A DNA stretch of 36,127 nt from a virus (IMGVR_UViG_2627854066_000004:1-36127), one strand, 5' to 3'. Shown: positions 1 through 36,127, counted from the stretch's first letter. Numbers and translations are program-made. Notes: generated by a model not told the origin, from the letters alone.

Positions 1-1023
1 TTATGTGGATGAAATGTGGATGCCTCCTTTTAACGGATTAAGTGAAATTGCATCCTGGAGGAAATCAGGAGCGAGGTGCGCATAGGTCATAGTTTGCTGG
101 ATCGTGGCGTGCCCCATAATTCGCTGGAGCGTAAGTATATTTCCTCCATTAATCATAAAGTGAGCAGCAAAGGTATGGCGTAGAACATGTACAGCCTGTC
201 CTTTTGGTAGGTCTGGCTTAACACTGCGAAGCACCTTGCGATATTCCTCATAATTGACGTCAAACAAAAGGCCGGATTTCTTTGTTTTGATCTCACTAAC
301 AACTTCATCAGAGACAGGAATAATTCGAACTTTTCCGTTTTTAGTTTTGTTAAACGTCACGCGATTATTGATGATGTGTTCCGCGCGCAGATTTTTCGCT
401 TCTCCCCATCTCGCACCAGTACTGAGACAAAGTAGCGTAATCCGCCGGGCATCACCGCTTACTGCATCCAGTAATTTGGCGATTTCTTCCGTGGTGAGAT
501 ACGTCATTTCGGGTGATTTTCGTTTCAAAGAGGGGAGGGCGCGGAGCGGATTTTCTCCGTGAAATTCCCCGGCATTTGCCAAGAGTGTAAACATTCCTCC
601 GAGATCCGACTCATCACGCCGAACAGTAGACTCTTTTACTCCCAAAGATAAACGGGAGCTTCGATAAGCAGCCATGAAACGAGCATTAATCTGGCTAACC
701 CTTGGATCATTCATTTCTTTGATGATTTTTTTCAACCTGGTTAGAACGCCGTTAGCATATGGCTTATTGCGTCCACCCAATTCCCACCATAACGGAAGCA
801 GATCTGAGAGATGACGTTGCTCTGTTGGCTTTTCAAGCCATTCCTTATCGTGCATGTGGCTGAGAACATAACGCTCAAAGGCCACTGCATCTGCCTTTTT
901 CTTAAAAATCCGCTGAATCCGACGTCCACTTCGGCCACGCGGTCTAACATCCACTTTATACCGTCCACCATCGAGTGCTTTAATTGCCATTGGCAAGCCC
1001 TCCGGTGAAACGAGGAAAGACAT
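1..1023 (-). CDS. int: phage integrase, tyrosine recombinase
   Basis: 340-aa ORF with C-terminal HVLRHTFAAHF and GHATIQQTMTYAHL motifs typical of tyrosine recombinases; sits next to the repressor as in P2. Stop codon at 1-3. Confidence 0.9.
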   Translation of the reverse strand: MSFLVSPEGLPMAIKALDGGRYKVDVRPRGRSGRRIQRIFKKKADAVAFERYVLSHMHDKEWLEKPTEQRHLSDLLPLWWELGGRNKPYANGVLTRLKKIIKEMNDPRVSQINARFMAAYRSSRLSLGVKESTVRRDESDLGGMFTLLANAGEFHGENPLRALPSLKRKSPEMTYLTTEEIAKLLDAVSGDARRITLLCLSTGARWGEAKNLRAEHIINNRVTFNKTKNGKVRIIPVSDEVVSEIKTKKSGLLFDVNYEEYRKVLRSVKPDLPKGQAVHVLRHTFAAHFMINGGNILTLQRIMGHATIQQTMTYAHLAPDFLQDAISLNPLKGGIHISST

Positions 1024-3083: not shown

Positions 3084-3325
3084 CCATTCTGGACTACATC
3101 ACAGCCAATCCGGGCTGTAGCGGTGGAGAAATCGCCGCAGCACTGAATACCCCAACTACAGCCATTAATGCGGAGTTACGCCGACTCTGGCGCAGCGGTT
3201 CAGTCGTAAGAAAAGAGCGCAAAACAGGTGGTCGGTTCTCTTACCAGGTAAACCCGATGCCGTTCGGGTGTGGTAACCCACTAACCCACATGTTTAACCA
3301 GCTACTGAAGGAAGCCAGAGCATGA
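3080..3325 (+). CDS. hypothetical protein, possible winged-helix DNA-binding
   Basis: 81 aa, ATGA overlap with the upstream gene; helix-turn-helix-like segment GEIAAALNTPTTAINAELRRL. Confidence 0.5.
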   Translation: MTILDYITANPGCSGGEIAAALNTPTTAINAELRRLWRSGSVVRKERKTGGRFSYQVNPMPFGCGNPLTHMFNQLLKEARA

Positions 3326-3621
3326 GCACCATCAACCACCAGGAATTACGCGAACTGGCGACTGACCTGCAACGAATGGCAACACATCAAAAATTACTGG
3401 CGTTTCGCGCAATGCTCTCACCATCTGCTGTGCTGGCACTGCTGGATGAGCTGGAGCACGCCAGAACTACGGCGCCTGCCATTCGCCTGACGCTCCATCA
3501 TGAAATCACTGATTTCTGCGCAACACTGGGGGCACCTGGTGAACCGGAAACACCGGAAGCAATACAGCGCGAGCTATTACAACGCATCGACAACGTTTTC
3601 GATTTTTTCCTTAACCAGTAA
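3322..3621 (+). CDS. hypothetical early protein
   Basis: 99 aa, ATGA coupling to the upstream gene. Confidence 0.5.
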   Translation: MSTINHQELRELATDLQRMATHQKLLAFRAMLSPSAVLALLDELEHARTTAPAIRLTLHHEITDFCATLGAPGEPETPEAIQRELLQRIDNVFDFFLNQ

Positions 3622-4813: not shown

Positions 4814-5203
4814 ATGATTGACGCTCATGACTTCACAGGATGGGTGCGCACACAGGACACCCGTCTGGCTCCCGTTCTTCAGGGATTATTTGATCTTTAC
4901 ATCCGTGGTCGTGACAACAGAGCACGCACCACAAAACCGGAGAACGCGGACACCCTTTATTTCACAGTAGACGACTGCTACCGCGTGGACTTCACACCAC
5001 ACGGGCTGGCGTTGCACTGCCTGACACCACACGGCGAATCACTGCTGGCGTATTACGACTCCCCGGCCTCCGCATTTGCGGCAATGCTGGCGCATCGCAC
5101 TGCTGGCGGGTGTGCCTCGCTGAGTGAATACACCGCTGAATTTAACCGCCTTTCCGCCATCTTTTCGCAGGAGTGGCAGCGCGTGACGGGATACCAGCCA
5201 TGA
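4814..5203 (+). CDS. hypothetical protein, coupled to A
   Basis: 129 aa; its stop overlaps the gene A start (ATGA at 5200-5203). Confidence 0.55.
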   Translation: MIDAHDFTGWVRTQDTRLAPVLQGLFDLYIRGRDNRARTTKPENADTLYFTVDDCYRVDFTPHGLALHCLTPHGESLLAYYDSPASAFAAMLAHRTAGGCASLSEYTAEFNRLSAIFSQEWQRVTGYQP

Positions 5204-8052
5204 GTGAGTTTGCATGGAGCTGGAATGAGCCACGGCCAGCCATTGATCCGGCCAGATTTACGGAGCACAGGCAGGAAACTGAAACCGACCTGCAACGCGC
5301 CATCCGTTACTACCTTGAGGCAGACAAAAAGGCTCTGGAAGAACAGGAAGCGAAGGAGGAAGCCTTTTTCGCACAATCCACCGTGGGTAAAAAACTCATG
5401 GCATCCCTTGAGGAAGCCGGACAGCGTGAAAAGCTGGCACAAAGCATCATCAGCAAGCGTCAGGCAACAGAACAAGACCCGGTGGCCCGTGCTTTTGCCA
5501 CACTGAAGGTGCTTCCCGTTTATCTGCGTGAACCTCTGAGCCGCCACCTCTCTTTCCTGCGCAAAAAACAGGAAGCCGATCGTCAGAAAGGCAAAAAGAG
5601 CTGGCAGGCGGAACGCTACGCGCGCGGAACCCTGCGCAAAATATTCGAACGTCTGGACCGCACCGACAGCCGCTGGCTGACACCGGGTTATCGCTCCATT
5701 GCCGGACGCGAACGCCTGGACGATTTGCTTTACCTGCCGCAGCTCAACAAACACCAGATACAGACGCTGGCCACCATGACGGCGGCGATGTTCAGCAGCA
5801 CCTTCGAAAAGCTCTGCGATGGCTTTGGTGCGACTGATGGCGAGCTGACCATGGATGTAACGCTGAAGGCGTATCAGATGCTGGCCCGCATGGCGTTACA
5901 CCTGCACGCCATGCCTCCGCATTATGACGCACTGACAACAGACAAAGACCGGAGGAACGAACCGGACACGGAGCTGCTGCCGGGCGCAATCCTTCGCCTG
6001 ACCTGTGCAGAATGGTGGAAACGCAAACTGTGGCTGTTACGTTGCGAGTGGAGAGAAGAACAACTCCGCGCCGCCTGTCTGGTTTCCAGAAAAACATCGC
6101 CCTATCTGAGCCAGGACGCGTTAAGCGAGTTTCGCGCACAGCGCGAGAAAACACGCGATTTCCTGAAAAGTTTCATGCTGGAAAATGAAGACGGGTTCAC
6201 GATTGATCTCGAGACGGTGTATTACGCGGGAGTAAGTAACCCGGTTCACCGTAAGGCAGAAATGATGGCCACCATGAAGGGGCTGGAACTTCTGGCCGAA
6301 GCCCGTGGCGACAAAGCGGTGTTTCTGACTGTCACCTGCCCGTCAAAATACCACGCCACAACAGAGAACGGTCATCCGAATCCCAAATGGAACGGGGCCA
6401 CCATGCGCGACTCCAGCGATTATCTGGTTAACACGTTTTTTGCGGCGGTCCGCAAAAAACTGAACCGCGACGGCCTGCGCTGGTATGGCATCCGCACGGT
6501 GGAGCCTCACCATGACGGCACCGTGCACTGGCATATGATGGTCTTTGCTCATCCGGAAGAAATCGACAGCATCGTGGCCATCACCCGCGATATTGCCATT
6601 CAGGAAGACCGCCACGAGCTGGGCAATGATATTACTCCGCGCTTTAAGGTGGAGTATGTCGACGGCTCCAAAGGCACGCCAACCAGCTACATCGCCACCT
6701 ACATCGGAAAAAATCTGGACAGCCGCGCCGTGGATGGAATCGACCCGAAAACGGGCAAACCACGCGTTGACCACGAAACCGGAAAATCAATGGCCGAGAG
6801 CGTGGAGCGCGCCATCGGCTGGGCGCGCCTTCACCGCGTCCGCCAGTTCCAGTTCTTTGGCATCCCCTCCCGTCAGGTGTGGCGTGAACTGCGCCGCCTC
6901 GCCAGCCAGATGGCACGCAACCCGGAAGGCCCGCAACGGCTGAAGGATGACGCAATGGATGCGGTTCTTGCTGCCGCTGATGCCGGGTGTTTTGCCTCCT
7001 ACATTGAAAAACAGGGTGGCGTACTTGTTCCACGCAAGGACTACCTGATTCGCACCGCCTACGACCTCGCAGATGAGCTGAACGATTACGGCGAGCAGGG
7101 CGTACAGATTTACGGGATCTGGTCACCACTCATCGGGGAATCCTCCCGTGTGTGCACGCATCCGGATAACTGGAAGCTGGTAAGACGCAAACCGGAAGCG
7201 GAAGACAGCGCCCGCGAAAATGGTTTTGACCTTCAGGGCGGCCCTGCCGCCCCTTGGACTCGTGGCAATAACTGTCCCCGTGTACAGGAAACGGACAACA
7301 ACGGGACAGAACAGCCGGAAGAACGGCCAGCACCGTGGCCGCAGATCCCTGACGGTGTTGAAGTGAACGAATGGCTGCACTCACTGAAACGGCACGAACG
7401 CCGGGCGCTGATGCGTTCGCTGCGTGACAAACAGGCAAAAAACAACAGTGATGAAATGCAGAGCTGGACACAGAGCCGCAAACAGCAGCGGCCTTTGCCT
7501 GATAACCACGAATTACTCGCTAAAGAATGGCGGGAGTCTGCTGAATCCCTTGGCCTGCATATCGGTGAACAACAGATGCAGCACCTGTTACGGGGCGGCA
7601 GTCTGTACGTTGACGGCAGCATCATTGCACCGCAGGGATTTGAAATTGTACGCAAACCGGATACCCGCCCGGACAGCCGAATCACGCAGCTCTGGCAGCG
7701 CCTGAGCCGTAATCACGATGTAAGCAGCACGGAGATCCGCCATAACCCGGTCGCCAGCTATCTGGCACAGCTGGGGGCATCAGACCCTGAAGCCGCCGCA
7801 CGCCTGGCATCCACACTTCAGCAGGACCAGAACACCATGAAAACACCCGTTACCGTGCTTTCTGACATGCTGCGCGCCATCCGCGACGCAGAGCACGCAC
7901 AGAGAATCAGTGAAACCACTGAACGCGCCCGCCGCAAAGCAGACCTGCTGCGGGGTGGCCTGACCAGTGGAAACAAAAAACAGACAGAAACGGGATTCAC
8001 AAATCCCATAAATGAGCAAAAAAACGCGCCGCGATATATGAAGCGCGCATAA
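5200..8052 (+). CDS. A: rolling-circle replication initiator, P2 gpA family
   Basis: Contains an HUH-type motif GTVHWHMMVF and paired tyrosines YIATYIGK as in the P2 A family. Start set at ATG 5200; the six-frame ORF begins at 5173. Confidence 0.85.
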   Translation: MSEFAWSWNEPRPAIDPARFTEHRQETETDLQRAIRYYLEADKKALEEQEAKEEAFFAQSTVGKKLMASLEEAGQREKLAQSIISKRQATEQDPVARAFATLKVLPVYLREPLSRHLSFLRKKQEADRQKGKKSWQAERYARGTLRKIFERLDRTDSRWLTPGYRSIAGRERLDDLLYLPQLNKHQIQTLATMTAAMFSSTFEKLCDGFGATDGELTMDVTLKAYQMLARMALHLHAMPPHYDALTTDKDRRNEPDTELLPGAILRLTCAEWWKRKLWLLRCEWREEQLRAACLVSRKTSPYLSQDALSEFRAQREKTRDFLKSFMLENEDGFTIDLETVYYAGVSNPVHRKAEMMATMKGLELLAEARGDKAVFLTVTCPSKYHATTENGHPNPKWNGATMRDSSDYLVNTFFAAVRKKLNRDGLRWYGIRTVEPHHDGTVHWHMMVFAHPEEIDSIVAITRDIAIQEDRHELGNDITPRFKVEYVDGSKGTPTSYIATYIGKNLDSRAVDGIDPKTGKPRVDHETGKSMAESVERAIGWARLHRVRQFQFFGIPSRQVWRELRRLASQMARNPEGPQRLKDDAMDAVLAAADAGCFASYIEKQGGVLVPRKDYLIRTAYDLADELNDYGEQGVQIYGIWSPLIGESSRVCTHPDNWKLVRRKPEAEDSARENGFDLQGGPAAPWTRGNNCPRVQETDNNGTEQPEERPAPWPQIPDGVEVNEWLHSLKRHERRALMRSLRDKQAKNNSDEMQSWTQSRKQQRPLPDNHELLAKEWRESAESLGLHIGEQQMQHLLRGGSLYVDGSIIAPQGFEIVRKPDTRPDSRITQLWQRLSRNHDVSSTEIRHNPVASYLAQLGASDPEAAARLASTLQQDQNTMKTPVTVLSDMLRAIRDAEHAQRISETTERARRKADLLRGGLTSGNKKQTETGFTNPINEQKNAPRYMKRA

Positions 8053-8089
8053 AACAGGCAAAAACGGGATTTCAGAATCCCGTAAACGA
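7977..8089. repeat. two 39-bp imperfect direct repeats, each with a GGGATT-N4-AATCCC palindrome
   Basis: Copies at 7977-8015 and 8051-8089 are 31/39 identical, straddle the gene A stop and lie just upstream of the StbA-like gene. Confidence 0.5.
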
Positions 8090-8117
8090 TTAATTAATCA
8101 ACATAAGGAAAAGCGAC

Positions 8118-9077
8118 ATGAAAATTTGTATCGACGACGGCTCCACCAACATCAAGCTGGCATGGACTGAGAACGGCGAACGCCGCAACGCCATCAGCCC
8201 GAACAGCTTCAAGTCGGAATGGTCTGCGCCGTTCGGTGGCTCGCAGCCTGCGAACTACATGCTTGATGGCGTGCGCTATGGTTTTGATCCGGTCAGCGAT
8301 CGCTTTGTCCAGACGACCGACACGCAATACCAGTACAGCGATGTGAATGTCATTGCCATTCATCACGCGCTGGTCAAATCAGGCATCACGCCACAGGAGG
8401 TGGATGTGGTTGTCACCCTGCCACTGAGCGAGTATTTCGACACAAACGCACAGCCGGACATGGCCAACATCAACCGCAAAAAAGCGAACGTTATGCGCCC
8501 GGTGGAGTACCAGAACGGCGAAGCATTCACTATCCGTAACGTGCGGGTTATGCCTGAATCCATTCCGGCTGGCTTTAAGGCACTGGCTGACATGAGTCCG
8601 TTTGAATCCCTGCTGATTGTAGATTTGGGCGGAACCACGCTGGATGTGGCAAAGGTTCAGGGGCAACTGGCAGGTATCAGCCAGGTGTTTTGCGATCCAC
8701 ACGTAGGCGTTTCTCTGATGGCCGATGCCGTACTGTCGGTGATGGCCACTAACGGTATGCGCACCAGTCACCACATCGCCAATACCATTATCGAACATCG
8801 CCATAATGAAGCCTGGCTGCGCCAGCACATCCACAATGACGCGCATTACGCCAGCCTGATGGAGGTTATTCGTGAAAAGGAAGAAACACTGAAACAACGC
8901 GTGATCCGCGCGCTGGCGGGTTTTTCGGGTTACGGGCGGGTGATGGTTGTCGGTGGAGGGGCGGAGATTGTGGCACCCGCTATCCGCGAAGCCTGCGGAG
9001 TTAATGCGACTTTCATCGCGGACGGGGTGCCACAGTTTGCTCTGGTTAATGGGCTGTACGCAATGGACAAGGAGTAA
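8118..9077 (+). CDS. actin-like segregation ATPase, StbA/ParM family
   Basis: 319 aa; N-terminus MKICIDDGSTNIKLAW and the LIVDLGGTTLDVA phosphate-binding motif match the StbA/ParM family of plasmid R100/R1. Confidence 0.8.
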   Translation: MKICIDDGSTNIKLAWTENGERRNAISPNSFKSEWSAPFGGSQPANYMLDGVRYGFDPVSDRFVQTTDTQYQYSDVNVIAIHHALVKSGITPQEVDVVVTLPLSEYFDTNAQPDMANINRKKANVMRPVEYQNGEAFTIRNVRVMPESIPAGFKALADMSPFESLLIVDLGGTTLDVAKVQGQLAGISQVFCDPHVGVSLMADAVLSVMATNGMRTSHHIANTIIEHRHNEAWLRQHIHNDAHYASLMEVIREKEETLKQRVIRALAGFSGYGRVMVVGGGAEIVAPAIREACGVNATFIADGVPQFALVNGLYAMDKE

Positions 9078-9081
9078 ACCA

Positions 9082-9393
9082 ATGACGACACCAACCAGAC
9101 GGATAAGTTTCTATCTGAAGCCCGCCGCCGTCAAGAACGAAGGCGAAGCATGCGCCTGGCTGGACAGCCTTACACCAGAAGCCCGCAAAAGCGGCCAACG
9201 CGTGGCTTTTCTGGCCGGGCTGGCACTTCTGAAAATGAATCCGGCAGAGGCTTACCGACTGGCTGCATGGGCTGACGATGAGGCGTTATCGGTGACACAA
9301 ACCAGGACAGAACGCCCCGCGTCACAGCCAGTATCAACCGCACAGATAACCAGTCAGATGGCCAGAAATATCCGGGCGTTATTTCCCGAATAA
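9082..9393 (+). CDS. StbB/ParR-like small DNA-binding partner (putative ribbon-helix-helix)
   Basis: 104 aa directly downstream of the StbA-like gene, AAGGAG RBS overlapping its 3' end; N-terminal beta-strand-like RRISFYLKP and C-terminal NIRALFPE resemble StbB as I recall it. Confidence 0.5.
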   Translation: MTTPTRRISFYLKPAAVKNEGEACAWLDSLTPEARKSGQRVAFLAGLALLKMNPAEAYRLAAWADDEALSVTQTRTERPASQPVSTAQITSQMARNIRALFPE

Positions 9394-9399
9394 CACAAC

Positions 9400-9421
9400 A
9401 TCAGGGCGCATCCGCCCTGAT
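9400..9421 (+). terminator. stem-loop after the stbAB-like unit
   Basis: ATCAGGGCG-CATC-CGCCCTGAT, a 9-bp perfect stem; the downstream T-tract is weak (GACTTT). Confidence 0.4.
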
Positions 9422-9456
9422 GACTTTAATCCGGGAACATAAACAAGGGGGACACA

Positions 9457-9792
9457 ATGCAACACATTGACAGAGAAAAAGAGCAGCGACTGATTGAGCG
9501 AATGGAAGCGCTGGCGAAAGAAGAAAATGTCAACATCCAAAAAATAGCTGAATGTGGCCAGATAGTTCTTCGTCGTGAAAAAGACATCAAGCAACTGATG
9601 TCTGGCGAAATCAGCAAAACATGGACTTCAGGCAAGAAGACGATTTATTGCAGCTTCTGCAATAAATCCCAGCACGAAGTCATAAAGGTGATTGCCGGAC
9701 CGTCTGTTTACATCTGCAATGAGTGCGTGGATTTGTGCAATGAAATTATCAGAGGAGAAGTGACAGACCATGAAGAAAAAACGCATGAATGA
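9457..9792 (+). CDS. small protein with C-terminal ClpX-type zinc-binding domain
   Basis: 111 aa; the C-terminal segment [38 protein letters not shown] is almost identical in pattern to the N-terminal C4 zinc-binding domain of ClpX (recalled as [38 protein letters not shown]). The N-terminal 60 aa are unrelated. Confidence 0.7.
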
Positions 9793-9857
9793 CGAATTTG
9801 ACGGCTTTTAATTTTATCGGGGCGCACTGTCTCCCCCCCCCGCACGAGGAAAACACG

Positions 9858-10382
9858 ATGAAAAAATACGAATACATGCTAATGAAAGAAGCACTGCGGG
9901 CTGGTCTGGCTCCCTGTCCTGTATCCGTAGAAGCTGTTGTTGGGAACACGATTTTCCGAACGCTGCGAAATCGCGTATCCGTGAAGATGATTCACCAACC
10001 ACCCAAATCTACCAGCATGATCTATCTGCCGCTGCCCGAGGCTATCAAACTTATGCGTTCGCTGAAATTTGCGATTTGGATGCAGACACAACTCAACAAA
10101 GCGGTGCAAAACACCTTCGTTAAGAAACTGATGCCGGAGCTTGCTGCCAGATGTGCAAAATGTACCAGACCCGCACTTCAATTTGATCTGTCATTGATTC
10201 AACAAGCTACGGAGGCAGAACTGTACCGCCTGTCACCTCTCCATGATGTTCACACGGAAGCCTCAGAAATGTTCCGGCTCATGTTTCAATTTAATTTTGC
10301 CGTTCGACGCACACGCGTTCAGGTCAATCGCATGATGCAGGCGCAGGAAGAGCTGACGCAACACAAAGGAGGCAACCAGTGA
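9858..10382 (+). CDS. hypothetical protein
   Basis: 174 aa from ATG 9858 with a GAGGA RBS; no domain recognised. Confidence 0.55.
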   Translation: MKKYEYMLMKEALRAGLAPCPVSVEAVVGNTIFRTLRNRVSVKMIHQPPKSTSMIYLPLPEAIKLMRSLKFAIWMQTQLNKAVQNTFVKKLMPELAARCAKCTRPALQFDLSLIQQATEAELYRLSPLHDVHTEASEMFRLMFQFNFAVRRTRVQVNRMMQAQEELTQHKGGNQ

Positions 10383-10903
10383 GCAAGATTGACTATCAGG
10401 CATTACGCGAACGCTATTCACCTGCGCCAGTACCGAAATGCCCTATTTGCGGCGAGGAAATGTCAATTCAGCGAATATCTGGAGCACAGGTTGTTTATGC
10501 CTGCTCCGGTTATGGTGATGATGGAGATTTCAAAATTGGTCGAACTCTTGCCGACGAACATTATGAAAAATCGCGCGTAACAGTGTTGGATGTCGGGGAT
10601 CCTGAAGTATTGGCGCTACTTGATTGGCTGGAAACTAAAGACAACCGAATCGCTGAACTGGAAAAAATCGCCACTGACTATGCACTTAAATTCCAGAAAG
10701 CACAGGACGCATTAAAGCATGCCGCTTTGCTGCATAGCCGGACGGCGCAACAAACAAATAATTTTGCAGTATCGCTTCCGGACATAAGCGAATATTTCAT
10801 TAATGACGTATTTCAGCCCTTGCGATACGAGCGGGATGTTGAAAGAGCCATCATAAAGGCTGGCGGAAAAGCATTGTGGCAGGAGAAACACGACGACAGA
10901 TAA
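10379..10903 (+). CDS. hypothetical protein with N-terminal zinc-ribbon-like motif
   Basis: 174 aa; GTG start overlaps the upstream stop (GTGA) with an AAAGGAGG RBS; CPICGEEM...YACSGYG. Confidence 0.55.
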   Translation: MSKIDYQALRERYSPAPVPKCPICGEEMSIQRISGAQVVYACSGYGDDGDFKIGRTLADEHYEKSRVTVLDVGDPEVLALLDWLETKDNRIAELEKIATDYALKFQKAQDALKHAALLHSRTAQQTNNFAVSLPDISEYFINDVFQPLRYERDVERAIIKAGGKALWQEKHDDR

Positions 10904-10928
10904 AAATAACACCTGATCTCCCTCAAAC

Positions 10929-10954
10929 CAGGGCGATAATCGCGCATCGCCCTG
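10929..10954 (+). terminator. stem-loop after the three-gene unit
   Basis: CAGGGCGAT-AATCGCGC-ATCGCCCTG, a 9-bp stem; no clean T-tract immediately after. Confidence 0.35.
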
Positions 10955-10955
10955 C

Positions 10956-10982
10956 TGCACAATAGTGCACAAATTTGCACAA
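10956..10982. repeat. three TGCACAA repeats with 10-bp phasing
   Basis: TGCACAA at 10956, 10966 and 10976, followed by a T7 run. Confidence 0.5.
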
Positions 10983-11406
10983 TTTTTTTGAACGACTTTT
11001 TGCCCTTCCGGCCCGCGTGGCGGCTGGATCCGTCAAGGATCCGTGCGTGCACAAAAAAACGCGTTTTTTCTGCGCGCAGGTGACGGGGGAACAGCCCGCG
11101 TTTCAGGGGGTAAATAGCATCCCCTGAACGATGTCGCAGCAACACAACAGAATGGCTGTATTTCTCACGCTGAGCGTGAAAAAGACGTGAGGGCTTTTGA
11201 TTTGATGGGGTGGCAGATAAGGCCGTCAAAATCGCACTGAGGCGGCGAGAACATGCAGTCAGCGCGATGGGATTGCGTAAGAGCCTGACCGTCGATGATG
11301 GCAATAAGCTGGAAGACGTCGTGAAATTATCTGATTGATACAGGAGCTGGAGAGTCGGGGCATAAATTTTTTATGCCCCGGCGAAGCAGCAGACAAGCGA
11401 AGCGCG

Positions 11407-12453
11407 TCAGGATGTGGGCTGGGTGTCCAGCAGTGCGTAAGGGTTAAAGCGGATCACCTCTTCGCCAAGCCAGTCATTGATGTGCTTCATAGCCTCCATG
11501 ACGGGCATCAGCTCGTTAATTGCGTAAACCCGCGCGGCCTTCTCCACATCACCAAACGCACTTTTTTCGCCCGGCATTGCCCCCATCAGTTGCGGCGGAA
11601 CGCGGTGCGCAGCCAGCACATCATCACGGGATGCCGCCTTAACATTCATGAACTCATCCTTTGCGGTGATCTGCTGGAACGGCAAAATTTGCACCCCCTC
11701 TTTGCCCCCGTTGGGCGCGTGGATGAGCACGTTTTTAAACGCACCACCACCACGCGCACCCTGTAACGTTTCTTTCAGGGAGTCCATGCTTTCGCGGTTT
11801 ACCTGCGCTGCACCGATGTAGATGATGCACCCGGCGTGGGATCCGTTGTCGTAATACAGTTTTCTGAACATGTCCGCCGAATGAGACAGGCTGGCCGAGA
11901 GTAATGCGCCAAGATATTCCGGCATGCCGTAAATTTCCTGGTTAATGTCCGGATTCATCAGGTGGCACACTTTGCCAGGGCAAAACTGAAACGCGTCCTT
12001 GCCATCCTGCACATACCACCATGATTCAAGATCGCTTCCGCGTCGCATGTATTTCGCCAGTGCGTGCCGTAATTTAAGTGGTTCGCCGAGCATATTGCTC
12101 CGAAGCTCAAGGAATGCGTTACCGAACACAAACCAGTCCAGCGCCAGCGCCGAGAAATCCTGCCGGGAAAGCAGCGGGTGCGGGATGTAGCAACCGAGCA
12201 ATACATTGCGCTTAAAGTAAAGCGCAGACTGATGCCAGGACGTTTGCCGGGCGGCTCTTGCCAGACCGTACCAGTCCACCGGGGTTTCATACCACCGCCC
12301 GTTATCAGCACAGTACATATTGTCCAGCAGGTCATGCCCGGTCAGGCGATAAGGACCATCAAATGTGAATGCACTGAGCGATGATTCTTTCCTGAGCGCA
12401 TCAGCGAGATCAATGCGTGAACTCATGCGCACTTTTTTATTTTTTCTGCTCAT
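11407..12453 (-). CDS. Q: portal vertex protein, P2 gpQ family
   Basis: 348 aa, size and position as P2 Q, leftward and adjacent to terminase P. Confidence 0.85.
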   Translation of the reverse strand: MSRKNKKVRMSSRIDLADALRKESSLSAFTFDGPYRLTGHDLLDNMYCADNGRWYETPVDWYGLARAARQTSWHQSALYFKRNVLLGCYIPHPLLSRQDFSALALDWFVFGNAFLELRSNMLGEPLKLRHALAKYMRRGSDLESWWYVQDGKDAFQFCPGKVCHLMNPDINQEIYGMPEYLGALLSASLSHSADMFRKLYYDNGSHAGCIIYIGAAQVNRESMDSLKETLQGARGGGAFKNVLIHAPNGGKEGVQILPFQQITAKDEFMNVKAASRDDVLAAHRVPPQLMGAMPGEKSAFGDVEKAARVYAINELMPVMEAMKHINDWLGEEVIRFNPYALLDTQPTS

Positions 12454-14203
12454 CAGAACTCCATAACCGTGAAACGCTCGTTTTCTCCTTCGCCGCCAAT
12501 TGGTTCGTTAATGACAGCAAGCATGGTTGCCCACGCAAGGTCGCCGTGGCTGATCCCCCTCGCGCGGTCCGTTTCGTAAGTGATAAAGCCGCCCGGTGTT
12601 TTCACCTTACGCACGGCGTTAAAGGCCGCGACCAGCTCGCGTTCGGCGCGATCGTATTCCCACCGTCCGGCACGCATTATTTGCAGCATTTTCAGTACCA
12701 GCGACCGTTTGGATGACAGCGTGAAGGTGTACGGAATAGCAGCAGGGAAAAACCGCTTCACTATCTGATAAACAGCCTCCCCGTTCCCGCCCGTCACATC
12801 AATGCCGATGTGTTCCACGTTGTAGCGACACGTGAACTCTTCAATGACTCTGGCCTGTTCTTCAAACTCCAGCCCCTGAACGCGTCGCGTCTCCACCGTT
12901 CGAAAACGGCCACCAGGAACAGCCGGAGGAACCACCACGGACACAGCGCCGCTGTCGCCGTTGCCACTGCTGCCGTTTGCGTCATACCCAATCCATACCG
13001 GACGATTCCCCATCGGGCGGGGAGCAAAAGGTTTCCAGTCTTTCCAGTCGTCGTATCCGTCAACACCGCAGCCAATCAGGATATTCAGGTTAAATGCCGA
13101 TTCCCCTTCGCGGACAAACTCACACATATAGAGATTGCGGAACTCGTCTTCGGTGTTTTCATCACGAATTTCGTCAATATCGGTGTGTTTCCAGCCGTGA
13201 TTAACCACATCTTCCAGCGTGACAATTTGCCGCCACGTCCGGTCAGGGCAGATAAGCCCGTTATGCAGCGTTTTCCAGTCCACAGAAAAACGCTGGCGTT
13301 TATGCGTGGCCTTTTTCTCGTTCCAGCGGTCGCCGTTCCAGTAGGCGTATGCCTCGTGCGTTTCGGTGGATGGCGTGGAGAAGTAGGTGCGCCGCAGTCC
13401 GCTGAGGGTTGCCATAGCGCCAGCCACCTTGCGCAGTTCAGCAAAGCGGCTGACCCAGAAAAATTCATCAAAATAAAAATTGCCCGTGTAGGACTGTGCC
13501 GTCGCAGCAGAAGTACCAAGAAAATGCAGCTCTGCACCGTTGGAGAGGATGATTTTATCGCCCCCTTTCAGCTCCACATCAACTTCAGATGCAGCCTTCT
13601 GAATAATGCTTTTAAACTGGAACGCCTGACGACGCGACGCAGACAAAAAAATCTGGTTACGCTGGTAAGGTTGTGCCACATCGTCACGCAGTGCCATCAG
13701 CAGTGCTTCCTGTGCAAAATACCAGGTCGCCCCAATCTGTCGGGATTTCAGGATCATCCTGTTACGTATCCCGGCTTCCCTGCAAAGGGTCAGAGAGTCA
13801 AACCAGCCCCGCTGATGCCACTCCAGCCTGCTGATGATTTTTTCCCGCAGTGCGGCAATCTGTTCCGGCGTGAAATGATTTTTGAGTTTTTCGCCCGGCT
13901 TTTCTTTCCTGTGGCCGTCGCATCCGGCTGGCCATCATGCAGTTTTTTAAGCTGCCGGGTCAGCAGGTCTATTTCCTTGAAGTCACCACCTGTTTTACTC
14001 TGTTTTTCAGTAAGCTGGATGAGGCGCGCATCGATGGACTGCGTGACACGCTGCACGGGTGGTGTTTCATCCCACTGGTCGCGTTTTTTCCACGCATAAA
14101 TCGTGTTCGGGTTTATTCCCATCAGACGTGATATTTCTGCGGGCGGATAACCCTGCCAGTAAAGTTGCCGCGCACGCTGGCGCACAAAAGCGTCCTGAAT
14201 CAT
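12453..14203 (-). pseudogene. P: terminase large subunit (P2 gpP family), interrupted by an apparent -1 frameshift
   Basis: The N-terminal piece (ORF 13790-14203) and the C-terminal piece (ORF 12453-13757, whose frame stays open upstream) are in different frames. The switch lies in a T-run at about 13899-13909: GGAAAG where GGAAAAG would give a continuous ...ATATGKEKPGEKLKNHF... Confidence 0.75.
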
Positions 14204-34689: not shown

Positions 34690-34986
34690 ATGAGTGAAAT
34701 GGTATTTTGTCGCGGATGCGGCAAGGAAATACATAAAGATGCCACATCCTGCCCCAATTGTGGAGCACCTCAAAGAACAGCAAGTTCAAAAAGCAGAATG
34801 ACAGCCGCACTACTGGCTTTCTTTTTAGGTGGTCTTGGTGCACACAAATTTTATTTAGGTAAAGTGGGGCAAGGATTCCTTTACCTTATTTTTTGCTGGA
34901 CATTCATTCCGGCAATCGTGGCATTTATTGAGTTTTTTATCTATCTATGCACCTCTGATGAAGACTTTGCCCGCAAATATGGCTAA
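34690..34986 (+). CDS. zinc-ribbon plus TM2-domain membrane protein
   Basis: 98 aa; CRGCG...CPNCG zinc ribbon followed by two hydrophobic helices (AALLAFFLGGLGAHKFYLG...). Confidence 0.6.
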   Translation: MSEMVFCRGCGKEIHKDATSCPNCGAPQRTASSKSRMTAALLAFFLGGLGAHKFYLGKVGQGFLYLIFCWTFIPAIVAFIEFFIYLCTSDEDFARKYG

Positions 34987-35178: not shown

Positions 35179-35376
35179 ATGACGCAAAATGTACGATGCA
35201 AAAATTGCAACAAACTACTTGCCCGCGCCTCATTTCACTACATTGAAATAAAATGTCCGCGCTGCAAAACACTTAACCAGATAACGAGAGCCATCGAGCA
35301 CCCCACACACATGAGGAGTTATGACCGTGGGGATCGCAATCCAGCACCAACCAGCACATACACCGGAACACACTAA
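35179..35376 (+). CDS. com: Com-like zinc-finger protein (phage Mu Com family translational regulator)
   Basis: 65 aa; RCKNCNKLL...IEIKCPRCK matches the Mu Com zinc finger nearly residue for residue as recalled; AGAGG RBS; the 3' end overlaps the downstream methyltransferase start. Confidence 0.7.
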   Translation: MTQNVRCKNCNKLLARASFHYIEIKCPRCKTLNQITRAIEHPTHMRSYDRGDRNPAPTSTYTGTH

Positions 35377-36127
35377 GGTTTATCAGACTGACAATGCCAC
35401 GCTCTGTCGTGGGAATGCGCTGGAAATATTGCCGCTGATTGAGCCAGAAAGCATTGATGCCTTAATCACTGACCCGCCTTACAGTTCGGGTGCGACACAC
35501 AAGGCCGGACGCACCAACCAAGGCAGCCATGCAAAATATCTGAACGGCGAGAACCTTCACCGCTTTGATGGGTTCGCGGGTGAAAACATGGACGCCCGTT
35601 CGTGGGCTTACTGGACACAATTATGGATGGCACAGGCACACCGCGCAGTCAGGCCGGGCGGTTATGCCCTGGTATTTACTGACTGGCGACAACTACCAGC
35701 TTTAACCGATGCGTTTCAGGCCAGCGGCTTTACATGGCGCGGCATCATTGCGTGGAACAAGGGGAGGGGGTCACGAACACCCCATACGGGGTATTTCAGG
35801 CATCAGTGCGAATACATCGTCTGGGGCAGCAAAGGCCATTTAGATAAATCGCCTTCGGGGCCGTTCGACGGCTGCATGACGTACCCGGTTATCCCGTCAA
35901 AGAAAATGCACCCGACCGGAAAACCAGAAGAACTAATGGCGGAACTGGTCAGGACTGTGAATAGTGGCGGAACAGTCCTTGATCCTTTTATGGGGTCAGG
36001 GACAACGGGTGTGGCTGCACTGAAAGCAGGGCGAAAATTTATTGGTATAGAAACCAGTGATCATTATTTTGAGGTAGCAGCGCAGCGGCTTCGGGGGACT
36101 ATTACCACAACCATTTCGGCTACATAA
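35321..36127 (+). CDS. DNA methyltransferase, beta-class amino-MTase (N6-adenine or N4-cytosine)
   Basis: 268 aa; catalytic motif ITDPPYS near the N-terminus and the AdoMet-binding motif DPFMGSGTTGVAA near the C-terminus (motif IV before motif I). Stop codon is the last three bases of the window. Confidence 0.85.
   Translation: MTVGIAIQHQPAHTPEHTKVYQTDNATLCRGNALEILPLIEPESIDALITDPPYSSGATHKAGRTNQGSHAKYLNGENLHRFDGFAGENMDARSWAYWTQLWMAQAHRAVRPGGYALVFTDWRQLPALTDAFQASGFTWRGIIAWNKGRGSRTPHTGYFRHQCEYIVWGSKGHLDKSPSGPFDGCMTYPVIPSKKMHPTGKPEELMAELVRTVNSGGTVLDPFMGSGTTGVAALKAGRKFIGIETSDHYFEVAAQRLRGTITTTISAT

Follow-up and report, generated by a model that had tools for sequence, protein, structure and literature searches.

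The 36,127-nucleotide (nt) stretch of viral DNA IMGVR_UViG_2627854066_000004:1-36127, referred to here in its entirety as the window, corresponds approximately to one P2-family prophage. Immediately 3′ of its replication gene gpA, and on the same strand, lies a cassette that we identify from its gene content and repeats as a type II (ParMRC) partition system, in which a predicted ParM-family ATPase and an adjoining predicted ParR are preceded by repeats that form the putative centromere (parC). The features of the cassette, together with the gene that it follows, are given below.

5173-8052, plus strand: gpA, rolling-circle replication initiator (Pfam Phage_GPA, 7e-131)
7945-9425, plus strand, approximate (about ±10 nt on the left): the whole par cassette, with parC boxes, parM, parR, and a terminal hairpin
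7974-8015, plus strand: direct repeat 1, inside the gpA 3′ end, where it encodes ...ETGFTNP...; box 1 is at 7991-8008 (CGGGATTCACAAATCCCA)
8048-8089, plus strand: direct repeat 2, overlapping the gpA stop region just upstream of parM; box 2 is at 8065-8082 (CGGGATTTCAGAATCCCG), a perfect 7+7 palindrome
8071-8098, plus strand: candidate weak sigma-70 promoter of parMR, as read from the sequence, with TTCAGA at 8071-8076 (within box 2), 16 nt, and ATTAAT at 8093-8098
8118-9077, plus strand: parM (stbA), actin-like ATPase of 319 amino acids (Pfam, phmmer, PHROG)
9082-9393, plus strand: parR (stbB), predicted centromere-binding adaptor of 103 amino acids (Pfam, PHROG)
9399-9422, no strand assigned: 10-bp GC-rich hairpin that closes the cassette on the right; it scores as terminator-like when read on the minus strand, and on the plus strand no T-run comes after its stem

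A StbA/ParM-family ATPase had been proposed at this location in a first-pass annotation of the DNA, and the assignment is now secure. The 319-residue product of parM contains both Pfam ParM domains (StbA_N at 2.1e-82 and the ParM C-terminal domain at 3.7e-68), and the similarity check to actin-like ATPases that the same annotation had called for, conducted with phmmer against the PDB, matched the protein to ParM of plasmid R1 (1mwk) at 5.9e-93. This match runs the full length of the protein (residues 2-316), with 147 of 315 aligned residues identical (46.7%), and the nucleotide-binding motifs IDDGST, MPESIPAG, DLGGTTLD, and GGGAE are kept in the alignment. PHROG families annotated 'partition protein' take in both ParM and ParR, and no NCBIfam model attains its cut-off. 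Purifying selection on parM is strong, with a mean ratio of nonsynonymous to synonymous substitutions (dN/dS) of 0.077 among 11 E. coli and phage copies. For population counts we used 80 IMG/VR loci among the matches listed, all of which are E. coli-type and 98-100% identical and hence form a sample suited to such counts rather than to distant comparison. The parM gene is intact in all 80, and the encoded proteins are at least 97.5% identical.

The parR gene starts 4 nt past the parM stop codon, and its 103-residue product matches the Pfam family Plasmid_stab_B (PF10784) at 1.6e-24 and phrog_2515, 'partition protein', at 2e-58. This agrees with the earlier description of a coupled, small StbB-like protein after ParM. 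A sequence search of ParR against the PDB returned no match. Both ends of the protein are invariant, with RRISFYLKP near the N-terminus and N-I-x-x-x-F-P (mostly NIxxLFP) at the C-terminus, and between them is a hypervariable linker at approximately residues 66-93. Such an architecture would fit the function of an adaptor. The C-terminal motif is common to the ParR of IncL/M plasmids (...KNVQHLFPDDD) and the ParRs of distant P2-like prophages. Gayathri et al. reportedly established in 2012 that the C-terminal tail of R1 ParR binds ParM, and because of this precedent the conserved motif is a plausible ParM-binding tail. A low-confidence AlphaFold2 (AF2) model of the ParR monomer (predicted local distance difference test score, pLDDT, of 58) places helices at residues 20-61 and, beyond a disordered linker, a separate C-terminal helix at residues 86-100; the N-terminal strand is absent from it.

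Selection on parR is uneven along its length, with a dN/dS of 0.14 over the first 65 codons and 0.44 over the remaining codons in the same 11 copies. A total of 46 distinct ParR proteins, belonging to two main allele types and with N-domain identity down to 61%, are encoded in 77 listed IMG/VR loci. This polymorphic protein stands beside the highly conserved ParM described above, and the boxes and the RRISFYLKP strand are unchanged. Variants of the boxes do not follow the ParR allele types. Many of the genome matches break within parR at approximately position 9136.

The repeats upstream of parM are two 42-nt direct repeats that are 79% identical and lie 74 nt apart, each with an 18-bp palindrome, CGGGATT-N4-AATCCCG. 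The first-pass annotation had recognized two repeats with a palindrome in each, and its length of 39 bp is close enough to ours. Its iterons, however, are two palindromic boxes and not an iteron array, and repeat 1, rather than being intergenic, sits within the 3′ end of gpA (5173-8052). When up to 1 mismatch is permitted, the palindrome occurs in the 36 kb only at the two box sites, with 0.02 occurrences expected. Conservation was assessed in the 78 listed IMG/VR loci with complete upstream sequence, and both boxes were scored in 76. Box 1 reads GGGA(T/C)(T/C)CAC(A/G)AATCCC in 73 of these 76 E. coli-type viral contigs. Across all 76, the outer GGGA...TCCC positions are nearly fixed and the central four to six bases are variable. 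Spacing between the boxes is likewise uniform, at 73 nt in 73/76 loci. It is 74 nt in the window, where the A-run at 8020-8026 is one A longer (7 As) than in ten related loci (6 As). The gpA frame is shifted for the last codons in the window, and the protein consequently ends in ...NEQKNAPRYMKRA in place of ...NEQKTRSDI.

Hafnia and Plesiomonas share the layout of two boxes, though their ParM proteins are only about 62% identical to that of the window. Measured from the parM ATG, the looser pattern GGG[AT]-N8-[AT]CCC, for which chance would yield about 1.6 sites per 36 kb, is found at −126/−52 in the window, −128/−55 in Hafnia, and −131/−59 in Plesiomonas (spacings of 74, 73, and 72 nt). Serratia and Enterobacter loci carry a long-range inverted repeat with GGGAAC and GTTCCC instead of the two boxes. 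As judged by sequence, the boxes are genuine cis elements of parMR with the placement and conservation of a centromere. The element ATTAATCAA, located between box 2 and the ribosome-binding site, is also kept at the same place in the window, Hafnia, and Plesiomonas. The candidate parMR promoter matches 8 of 12 consensus positions, which puts it under the scan threshold.

The DNA between the boxes (8027-8050) forms an inverted repeat, ACGCGC...GCGCGC, around the usual gpA stop codon. Phage 520873 has ACGTGC...GCACGC at this site, which resembles a compensatory double change. We considered an RNA or hairpin structure in this interval and set it aside as unconvincing, as support from RNAalifold was limited to a single compensatory pair and −0.76 kcal/mol for the covariation term.

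The prophage spans from the integrase stop codon to the right-end DNA methylase gene and is collinear with a complete P88-like genome. Its genes follow the P2-type order (int, C/cox, gpA, portal Q, terminase, capsid, tail, D, ogr), and Pfam models recognize the integrase, GPA, and GPD. With 98% identity of the region to P88 and to records of Xuanwuvirus, the element classifies as Peduoviridae (P2-like), genus Xuanwuvirus (P88-like). The par cassette is positioned at the start of the gpA-Q interval, which is a variable hotspot of P2-like phages. Three landmarks frame this arrangement.

1-1023, minus strand: integrase (Pfam)
11407-12453, minus strand: portal gene Q
35321-36127, plus strand: DNA methylase (N6/N4) at the right end of the window

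A scan of positions 7700-8118, from gpA to parM, found no terminator-like site on the plus strand. The origin nick site of P2/186, queried with a sequence of uncertain accuracy, had no match at up to 3 mismatches.

Comparison with related prophages defines the limits of the cassette. Two P88-like prophages without parMR (L006 and L007) align with the window to approximately 7941-7955, about 20-30 nt before repeat 1, and then diverge. On the right, matches in other phages and genomes stop at 9393-9396, 9419, or 9460, i.e., at the parR stop codon or just past the hairpin, and the genes after parR vary between phages. Because the mobile unit so delimited (approximately 7945-9425) contains both boxes, this comparative evidence indicates that the boxes belong to parMR and travel with it. 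The gpA C-termini of prophages with and without the cassette differ accordingly, and the cassette supplies the final ~33 gpA codons.

The cassette is the usual yet dispensable first occupant of the hotspot. Of 1444 E. coli genomes with a match to any portion of a query composed of the gpA 3′ half and parMR, 1265 (88%) cover at least 80% of that query. Approximately 3 of 60 evenly spaced matches (~5%) have the same gpA and other cargo, such as a Dam methylase with an AAA ATPase or three unknown genes. One deletion variant (L008, NZ_CP085183.1), which is homologous from window position 8083 on, has lost gpA, most early genes, and both boxes, and has parM and parR intact.

Cassettes of this kind are common. 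Over 1.56 kb, phage P88, Xuanwuvirus P884B11, Citrobacter phage ΦSM, and others share 94-98% identity with the window, and most of these records annotate ParM and a partition protein. P88 and ΦSM form plaques on E. coli K-12 and also lysogenize it (PMC5285337, PMC6456863). The region is present in 1308 of 5426 complete E. coli genomes (24%), including O157:H7, O104:H4, ST131, and UTI89, such that about one quarter of these genomes carry an actin-type segregation cassette in the chromosome; 1454 of the 1456 copies are chromosomal. RefSeq and PHROGs already annotate the genes as partition proteins, and Rousset et al. 2022 mention the cassette explicitly (PMC9122126). It is therefore already known, in the literature as a passing remark, and the discovery is a modest one. 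The first-pass interpretation holds insofar as a type II partition cassette follows gpA at the head of the variable gpA-portal region of an integrase-bearing P2-like prophage. Its surprise at meeting such a cassette there was overstated for an arrangement that is so frequent, annotated, and published. What we add are the limits of the cassette, the boxes that accompany parMR, the relatives in other genera, the distance from plasmid systems, the selection acting on the genes, and the chromosomal location. For the copy in the O157 prophage CP-933T, the published proteome and transcriptome data that we examined gave nothing usable on expression.

A tblastn search of ParM against 72,556 plasmids gave no match at 60-95% identity, and the best genuine plasmid ParM, from IncL/M-type plasmids, is 52% identical. 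The equivalent ParR search against plasmids found prophage copies only. The next relatives of ParM in a large protein collection, at 54-62% identity, are from Hafnia, Plesiomonas, Serratia, and Enterobacter. All four of the relatives inspected lie between gpA and the portal/terminase genes of a P2-like prophage, and in each case a Plasmid_stab_B gene comes next. For three ParM proteins of ≤50% identity, the neighbors are Rep3/umuDC or Tra genes, a plasmid or integrative and conjugative element (ICE) context. A neighbor-joining tree of 105 full-length ParM proteins, midpoint-rooted and without bootstrap, places the phage-context proteins in one 16-member clade that leaves out those three. The tree thus indicates a ParMRC clade specific to P2-family phages. 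As a recent event, capture of the cassette as cargo from a plasmid, which was among the possibilities raised at first, is disfavored by the gap in plasmid ParM identity and by the position of the nearest relatives in P2-like prophages of other genera.

The cassette is very probably a working ParMRC machine, and its operation might proceed as follows. ParR dimers would bind the two palindromic boxes of parC, which at ~73 bp apart are separated by about seven helical turns. Because box 2 overlaps the likely parMR promoter, ParR would also be expected to repress its own operon. The NIxxLFP tail at the C-terminus of ParR would then capture the ends of ParM-ATP filaments, and filament growth between two ParR/parC complexes would separate sister DNA circles. 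In P2-type replication the products are circles of one genome unit each, and as substrates these resemble plasmids. The substrate would presumably be the extrachromosomal circular phage genome, after infection or excision, during gpA rolling-circle synthesis. Because parMR is directly downstream of gpA, on the same strand, and with no terminator between them, the two are likely to be co-expressed, and parMR would be on whenever the early (replication) operon is on. The benefit to the phage might be that replicating circles are distributed or positioned in a cell that is still growing. Both daughter cells would then be likelier to hold a copy until integration, with less abortive lysogeny and less curing, and/or efficient replication would be supported.

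On this basis we favor transient partition or positioning of an excised or infecting, gpA-replicated circular phage genome, a reading in which our confidence and our doubt are about equal and of which the positioning of phage DNA had been raised in the first-pass annotation. It is favored because of the chromosomal location of the copies, the integrase, a replicon that consists of gpA only, the gene order after gpA, and the precedents of srpMRC and AlpAC discussed below. A broader proposal, which is more tentative, is that P2-family phages own a lineage-specific life-cycle ParMRC that segregates or positions gpA-made monomeric circles at lysogenization, after excision, or in lytic growth.

Several points weigh against transient partition or positioning. 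The timing of expression is deduced from gene order only, and a sigma-70 consensus scan of 7700-11500 found no promoter, leaving the weak parMR candidate. Only two boxes are present here versus ten iterons in R1 parC, and the AF2 monomer model (pLDDT 58) does not recover a ribbon-helix-helix fold for ParR. The absence of the cassette from ~5% of related prophages means that it is not essential. Furthermore, parMR is intact where gpA is frameshifted (L018 and L021) or deleted (L008), which is compatible either with a role independent of phage replication or with recent decay. Finally, we found no experiment on the cassette in the searchable literature.

The alternative that survives best, and that we nevertheless consider unlikely, is that P2-like phages with the cassette are facultative plasmid prophages that persist long-term as low-copy plasmids and do not integrate. 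Rousset et al. 2022 interpret the cassette in this way, and the first-pass annotation gave the same option first. Its attraction is the complete plasmid-type partition cassette, and among phage-plasmids, D6 relies on a ParM of the StbA type with 47.5% identity. The phage records CP025923 and CP025874 also have accessions that resemble those of replicons from bacterial genome projects. There is also one PLSDB record (NZ_CP148288.1, L001), a circular 'plasmid' of 34,461 bp from a cat E. coli isolate that comprises a whole P88-like phage genome, integrase included. However, the closest match to this 34.5-kb circle in the genome collection is a chromosomally integrated copy, 99.9% identical, in a sister isolate of human origin from that project, and the circle is ambiguous in that it could represent an episome but also induced phage or a product of the assembly. 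The other small 'plasmid', a Shigella record of 26.7 kb, is a linear contig full of insertion sequence (IS) elements, and the remaining plasmid matches are records of 228 kb to 1.4 Mb with an integrated copy. Maintenance as a plasmid thus gains a little from one phage-sized circular record and is opposed by the 1454 of 1456 E. coli copies that are chromosomal. Compared with phage-plasmids of the P1, N15, SSU5, and D6 type, the element differs in these chromosomal copies, in keeping an integrase, and in having gpA as the only replication gene recognized, with no plasmid-type replicon seen. Stable plasmid maintenance is therefore less likely than transient partition or positioning.

A less probable alternative still is lysogenic conversion, by which ParR, ParM, and a chromosomal parC would hinder incoming DNA, either by excluding related P2-like phages or plasmids or by being incompatible with them, or as anti-phage defense. 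The gpA-portal hotspot does hold many defense systems (PMC9122126), the cassette is exchanged for other cargo in ~5% of prophages, and a highly polymorphic ParR beside a near-invariant ParM is a pattern that can reflect conflict. The polymorphism, however, is not located where escape from incompatibility would predict it, as neither the DNA-reading strand of ParR nor the boxes diversify with the ParR alleles, and no plasmid among those searched has a close ParR or these boxes. A scan of PADLOC-DB v2 with ParM, ParR, and the three downstream hotspot proteins gave no match at E≤0.1, which leaves the defense role suggested by the first reading of this DNA without support. Rousset et al. likewise place the cassette among genes likely to serve non-defense functions (PMC9122126).

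It is very doubtful that the cassette acts on the integrated prophage or host chromosome by separating sister chromosomal loci. Nearly all copies are chromosomal, and parMR persists intact in prophages with broken or deleted gpA, both of which would suit such a role. We know of no precedent for a ParMRC system that segregates a chromosome arm. Moreover, L008 keeps parMR without either box, and because both boxes are lost there, retention of the genes in that locus is independent of parC. Conservation also follows the phage lineage across genera and not host lineages. Equally improbable is that the cassette is a passenger, selfish or neutral, that at present does nothing for either phage or host. 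Its absence from ~5% of related prophages might suggest this, but purifying selection on parM is strong (dN/dS 0.077), parM is intact in 80/80 listed loci, and P2-like phages of several genera, with ParM proteins at 54-62% identity, conserve the genes, their position, and the arrangement of the boxes.

If transient partition or positioning of phage circles is correct, a quarter of E. coli P2-like prophages would go through an actively partitioned, plasmid-like phase, and the precedents from ICEs and CGP3 would extend to a group of temperate coliphages that is large and well studied. The way in which integrative elements that replicate by rolling circle escape loss in their extrachromosomal phase would be explained as well. 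A minimal two-box centromere located partly inside a replication gene would be a new parC design, and such a compact two-site ParMRC might be a convenient model for determining the fewest ParR sites that can cap a ParM filament. The remaining interest is in the biology of the cassette and in this minimal centromere.

The prophage carries other cargo as well. Directly after the par cassette (9457-9792, plus strand) is a gene for a 111-residue protein with a C-terminal, stand-alone ClpX-type C4 zinc finger (Pfam, 1.5e-17) and no ATPase domain. Its P88 homolog is annotated 'carboxylate-amine ligase', and perhaps the protein could mimic or compete with the substrate/adaptor-binding domain of ClpX. 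The next hotspot gene (9858-10382, plus strand) encodes a 174-residue protein that matches nothing in Pfam, PHROG, or PADLOC, and it is followed by a gene for an Ead/Ea22-like protein (10379-10903, plus strand; 1e-32). A second, weak Ead/Ea22-like open reading frame is present in the early region at 3322-3621.

Beyond the portal gene, the gene for the terminase large subunit (12456-14203, minus strand) is split relative to the intact 583-residue protein of a related phage. Residues 1-94 are encoded at 14203-13922 and residues 109-583 at 13880-12456 in another frame. This split may mean that DNA packaging by the prophage is disabled, or it may be an indel error of the assembly. At the other end of the prophage, where the N6/N4 DNA methylase gene is located, a zinc-ribbon and TM2-domain membrane protein is encoded at 34690-34986 (plus strand). 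The methylase gene in L001 is preceded by genes for a Com-family regulator and a Hok/Gef toxin, and this end therefore resembles another region of cargo, close to the attachment site.

Among the known systems closest to the cassette is ParMRC of plasmids R1/NR1 (parA/stb), whose ParM and ParR are also called StbA and StbB. The two share the order parC, parM, parR, as well as ParM itself (46.7% identity, with motifs kept), the Pfam family of ParR, and repeats upstream of parM at or overlapping the likely promoter. The R1/NR1 system is on a plasmid, whereas the cassette is in an integrated phage. Also, R1 parC has ten iterons in two blocks of five 11-bp iterons, in contrast to two 18-bp palindromes ~73 bp apart, and box 1 of the cassette is embedded in the coding sequence of the replication gene. 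The ParR of the cassette is shorter (103 amino acids), and its sequence has diverged so far that neither tblastn nor a search of PDB sequences connects it with plasmid ParRs.

The closest plasmid ParM that we found, at 52% identity, is from IncL/M-type conjugative plasmids (e.g., p24A17014B_A_KPC), and the ParR of these plasmids ends in ...KN(V/I)xxLFP as it does in the cassette. Unlike the cassette, the IncL/M system has a ParR of 147 amino acids and a different upstream repeat region, and it belongs to a plasmid replicon with conjugation genes. In the StbA locus of phage-plasmid D6, a phage-borne ParM (47.5% identical) precedes a small partition protein, and the database entry for D6 mentions a resemblance to StbA of P88. 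D6 differs in being a P1-like plasmid prophage that is truly plasmid-borne, and its ParR C-terminus and upstream repeats are distinct.

Two further systems belong to a prophage and to an ICE. The AlpA/AlpC/alpS system of the Corynebacterium prophage CGP3 also pairs a prophage actin-like ATPase with a DNA-binding adaptor, and the CGP3 adaptor binds its own promoter region. AlpA and AlpC tie circular CGP3 prophage DNA to actin-like filaments, are induced early, and are required for efficient replication (PMC4446434, PMC5539076). The likeness is at the superfamily level. The CGP3 system represents another actin-like subfamily, its host is Gram-positive, and its gene organization differs from that of ParM-ParR loci, as the CGP3 authors note. 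The other precedent is srpMRC, which its authors call only distantly related to R1 ParMRC (PMC4489591). It belongs to an ICE and not to a phage and has been tested experimentally. Like the cassette, srpMRC is a type II partition system on a normally integrated element that relies on a relaxase-type initiator when excised, and it reduces loss of the SXT/R391 ICE, which replicates via its relaxase in that state (PMC4489591).

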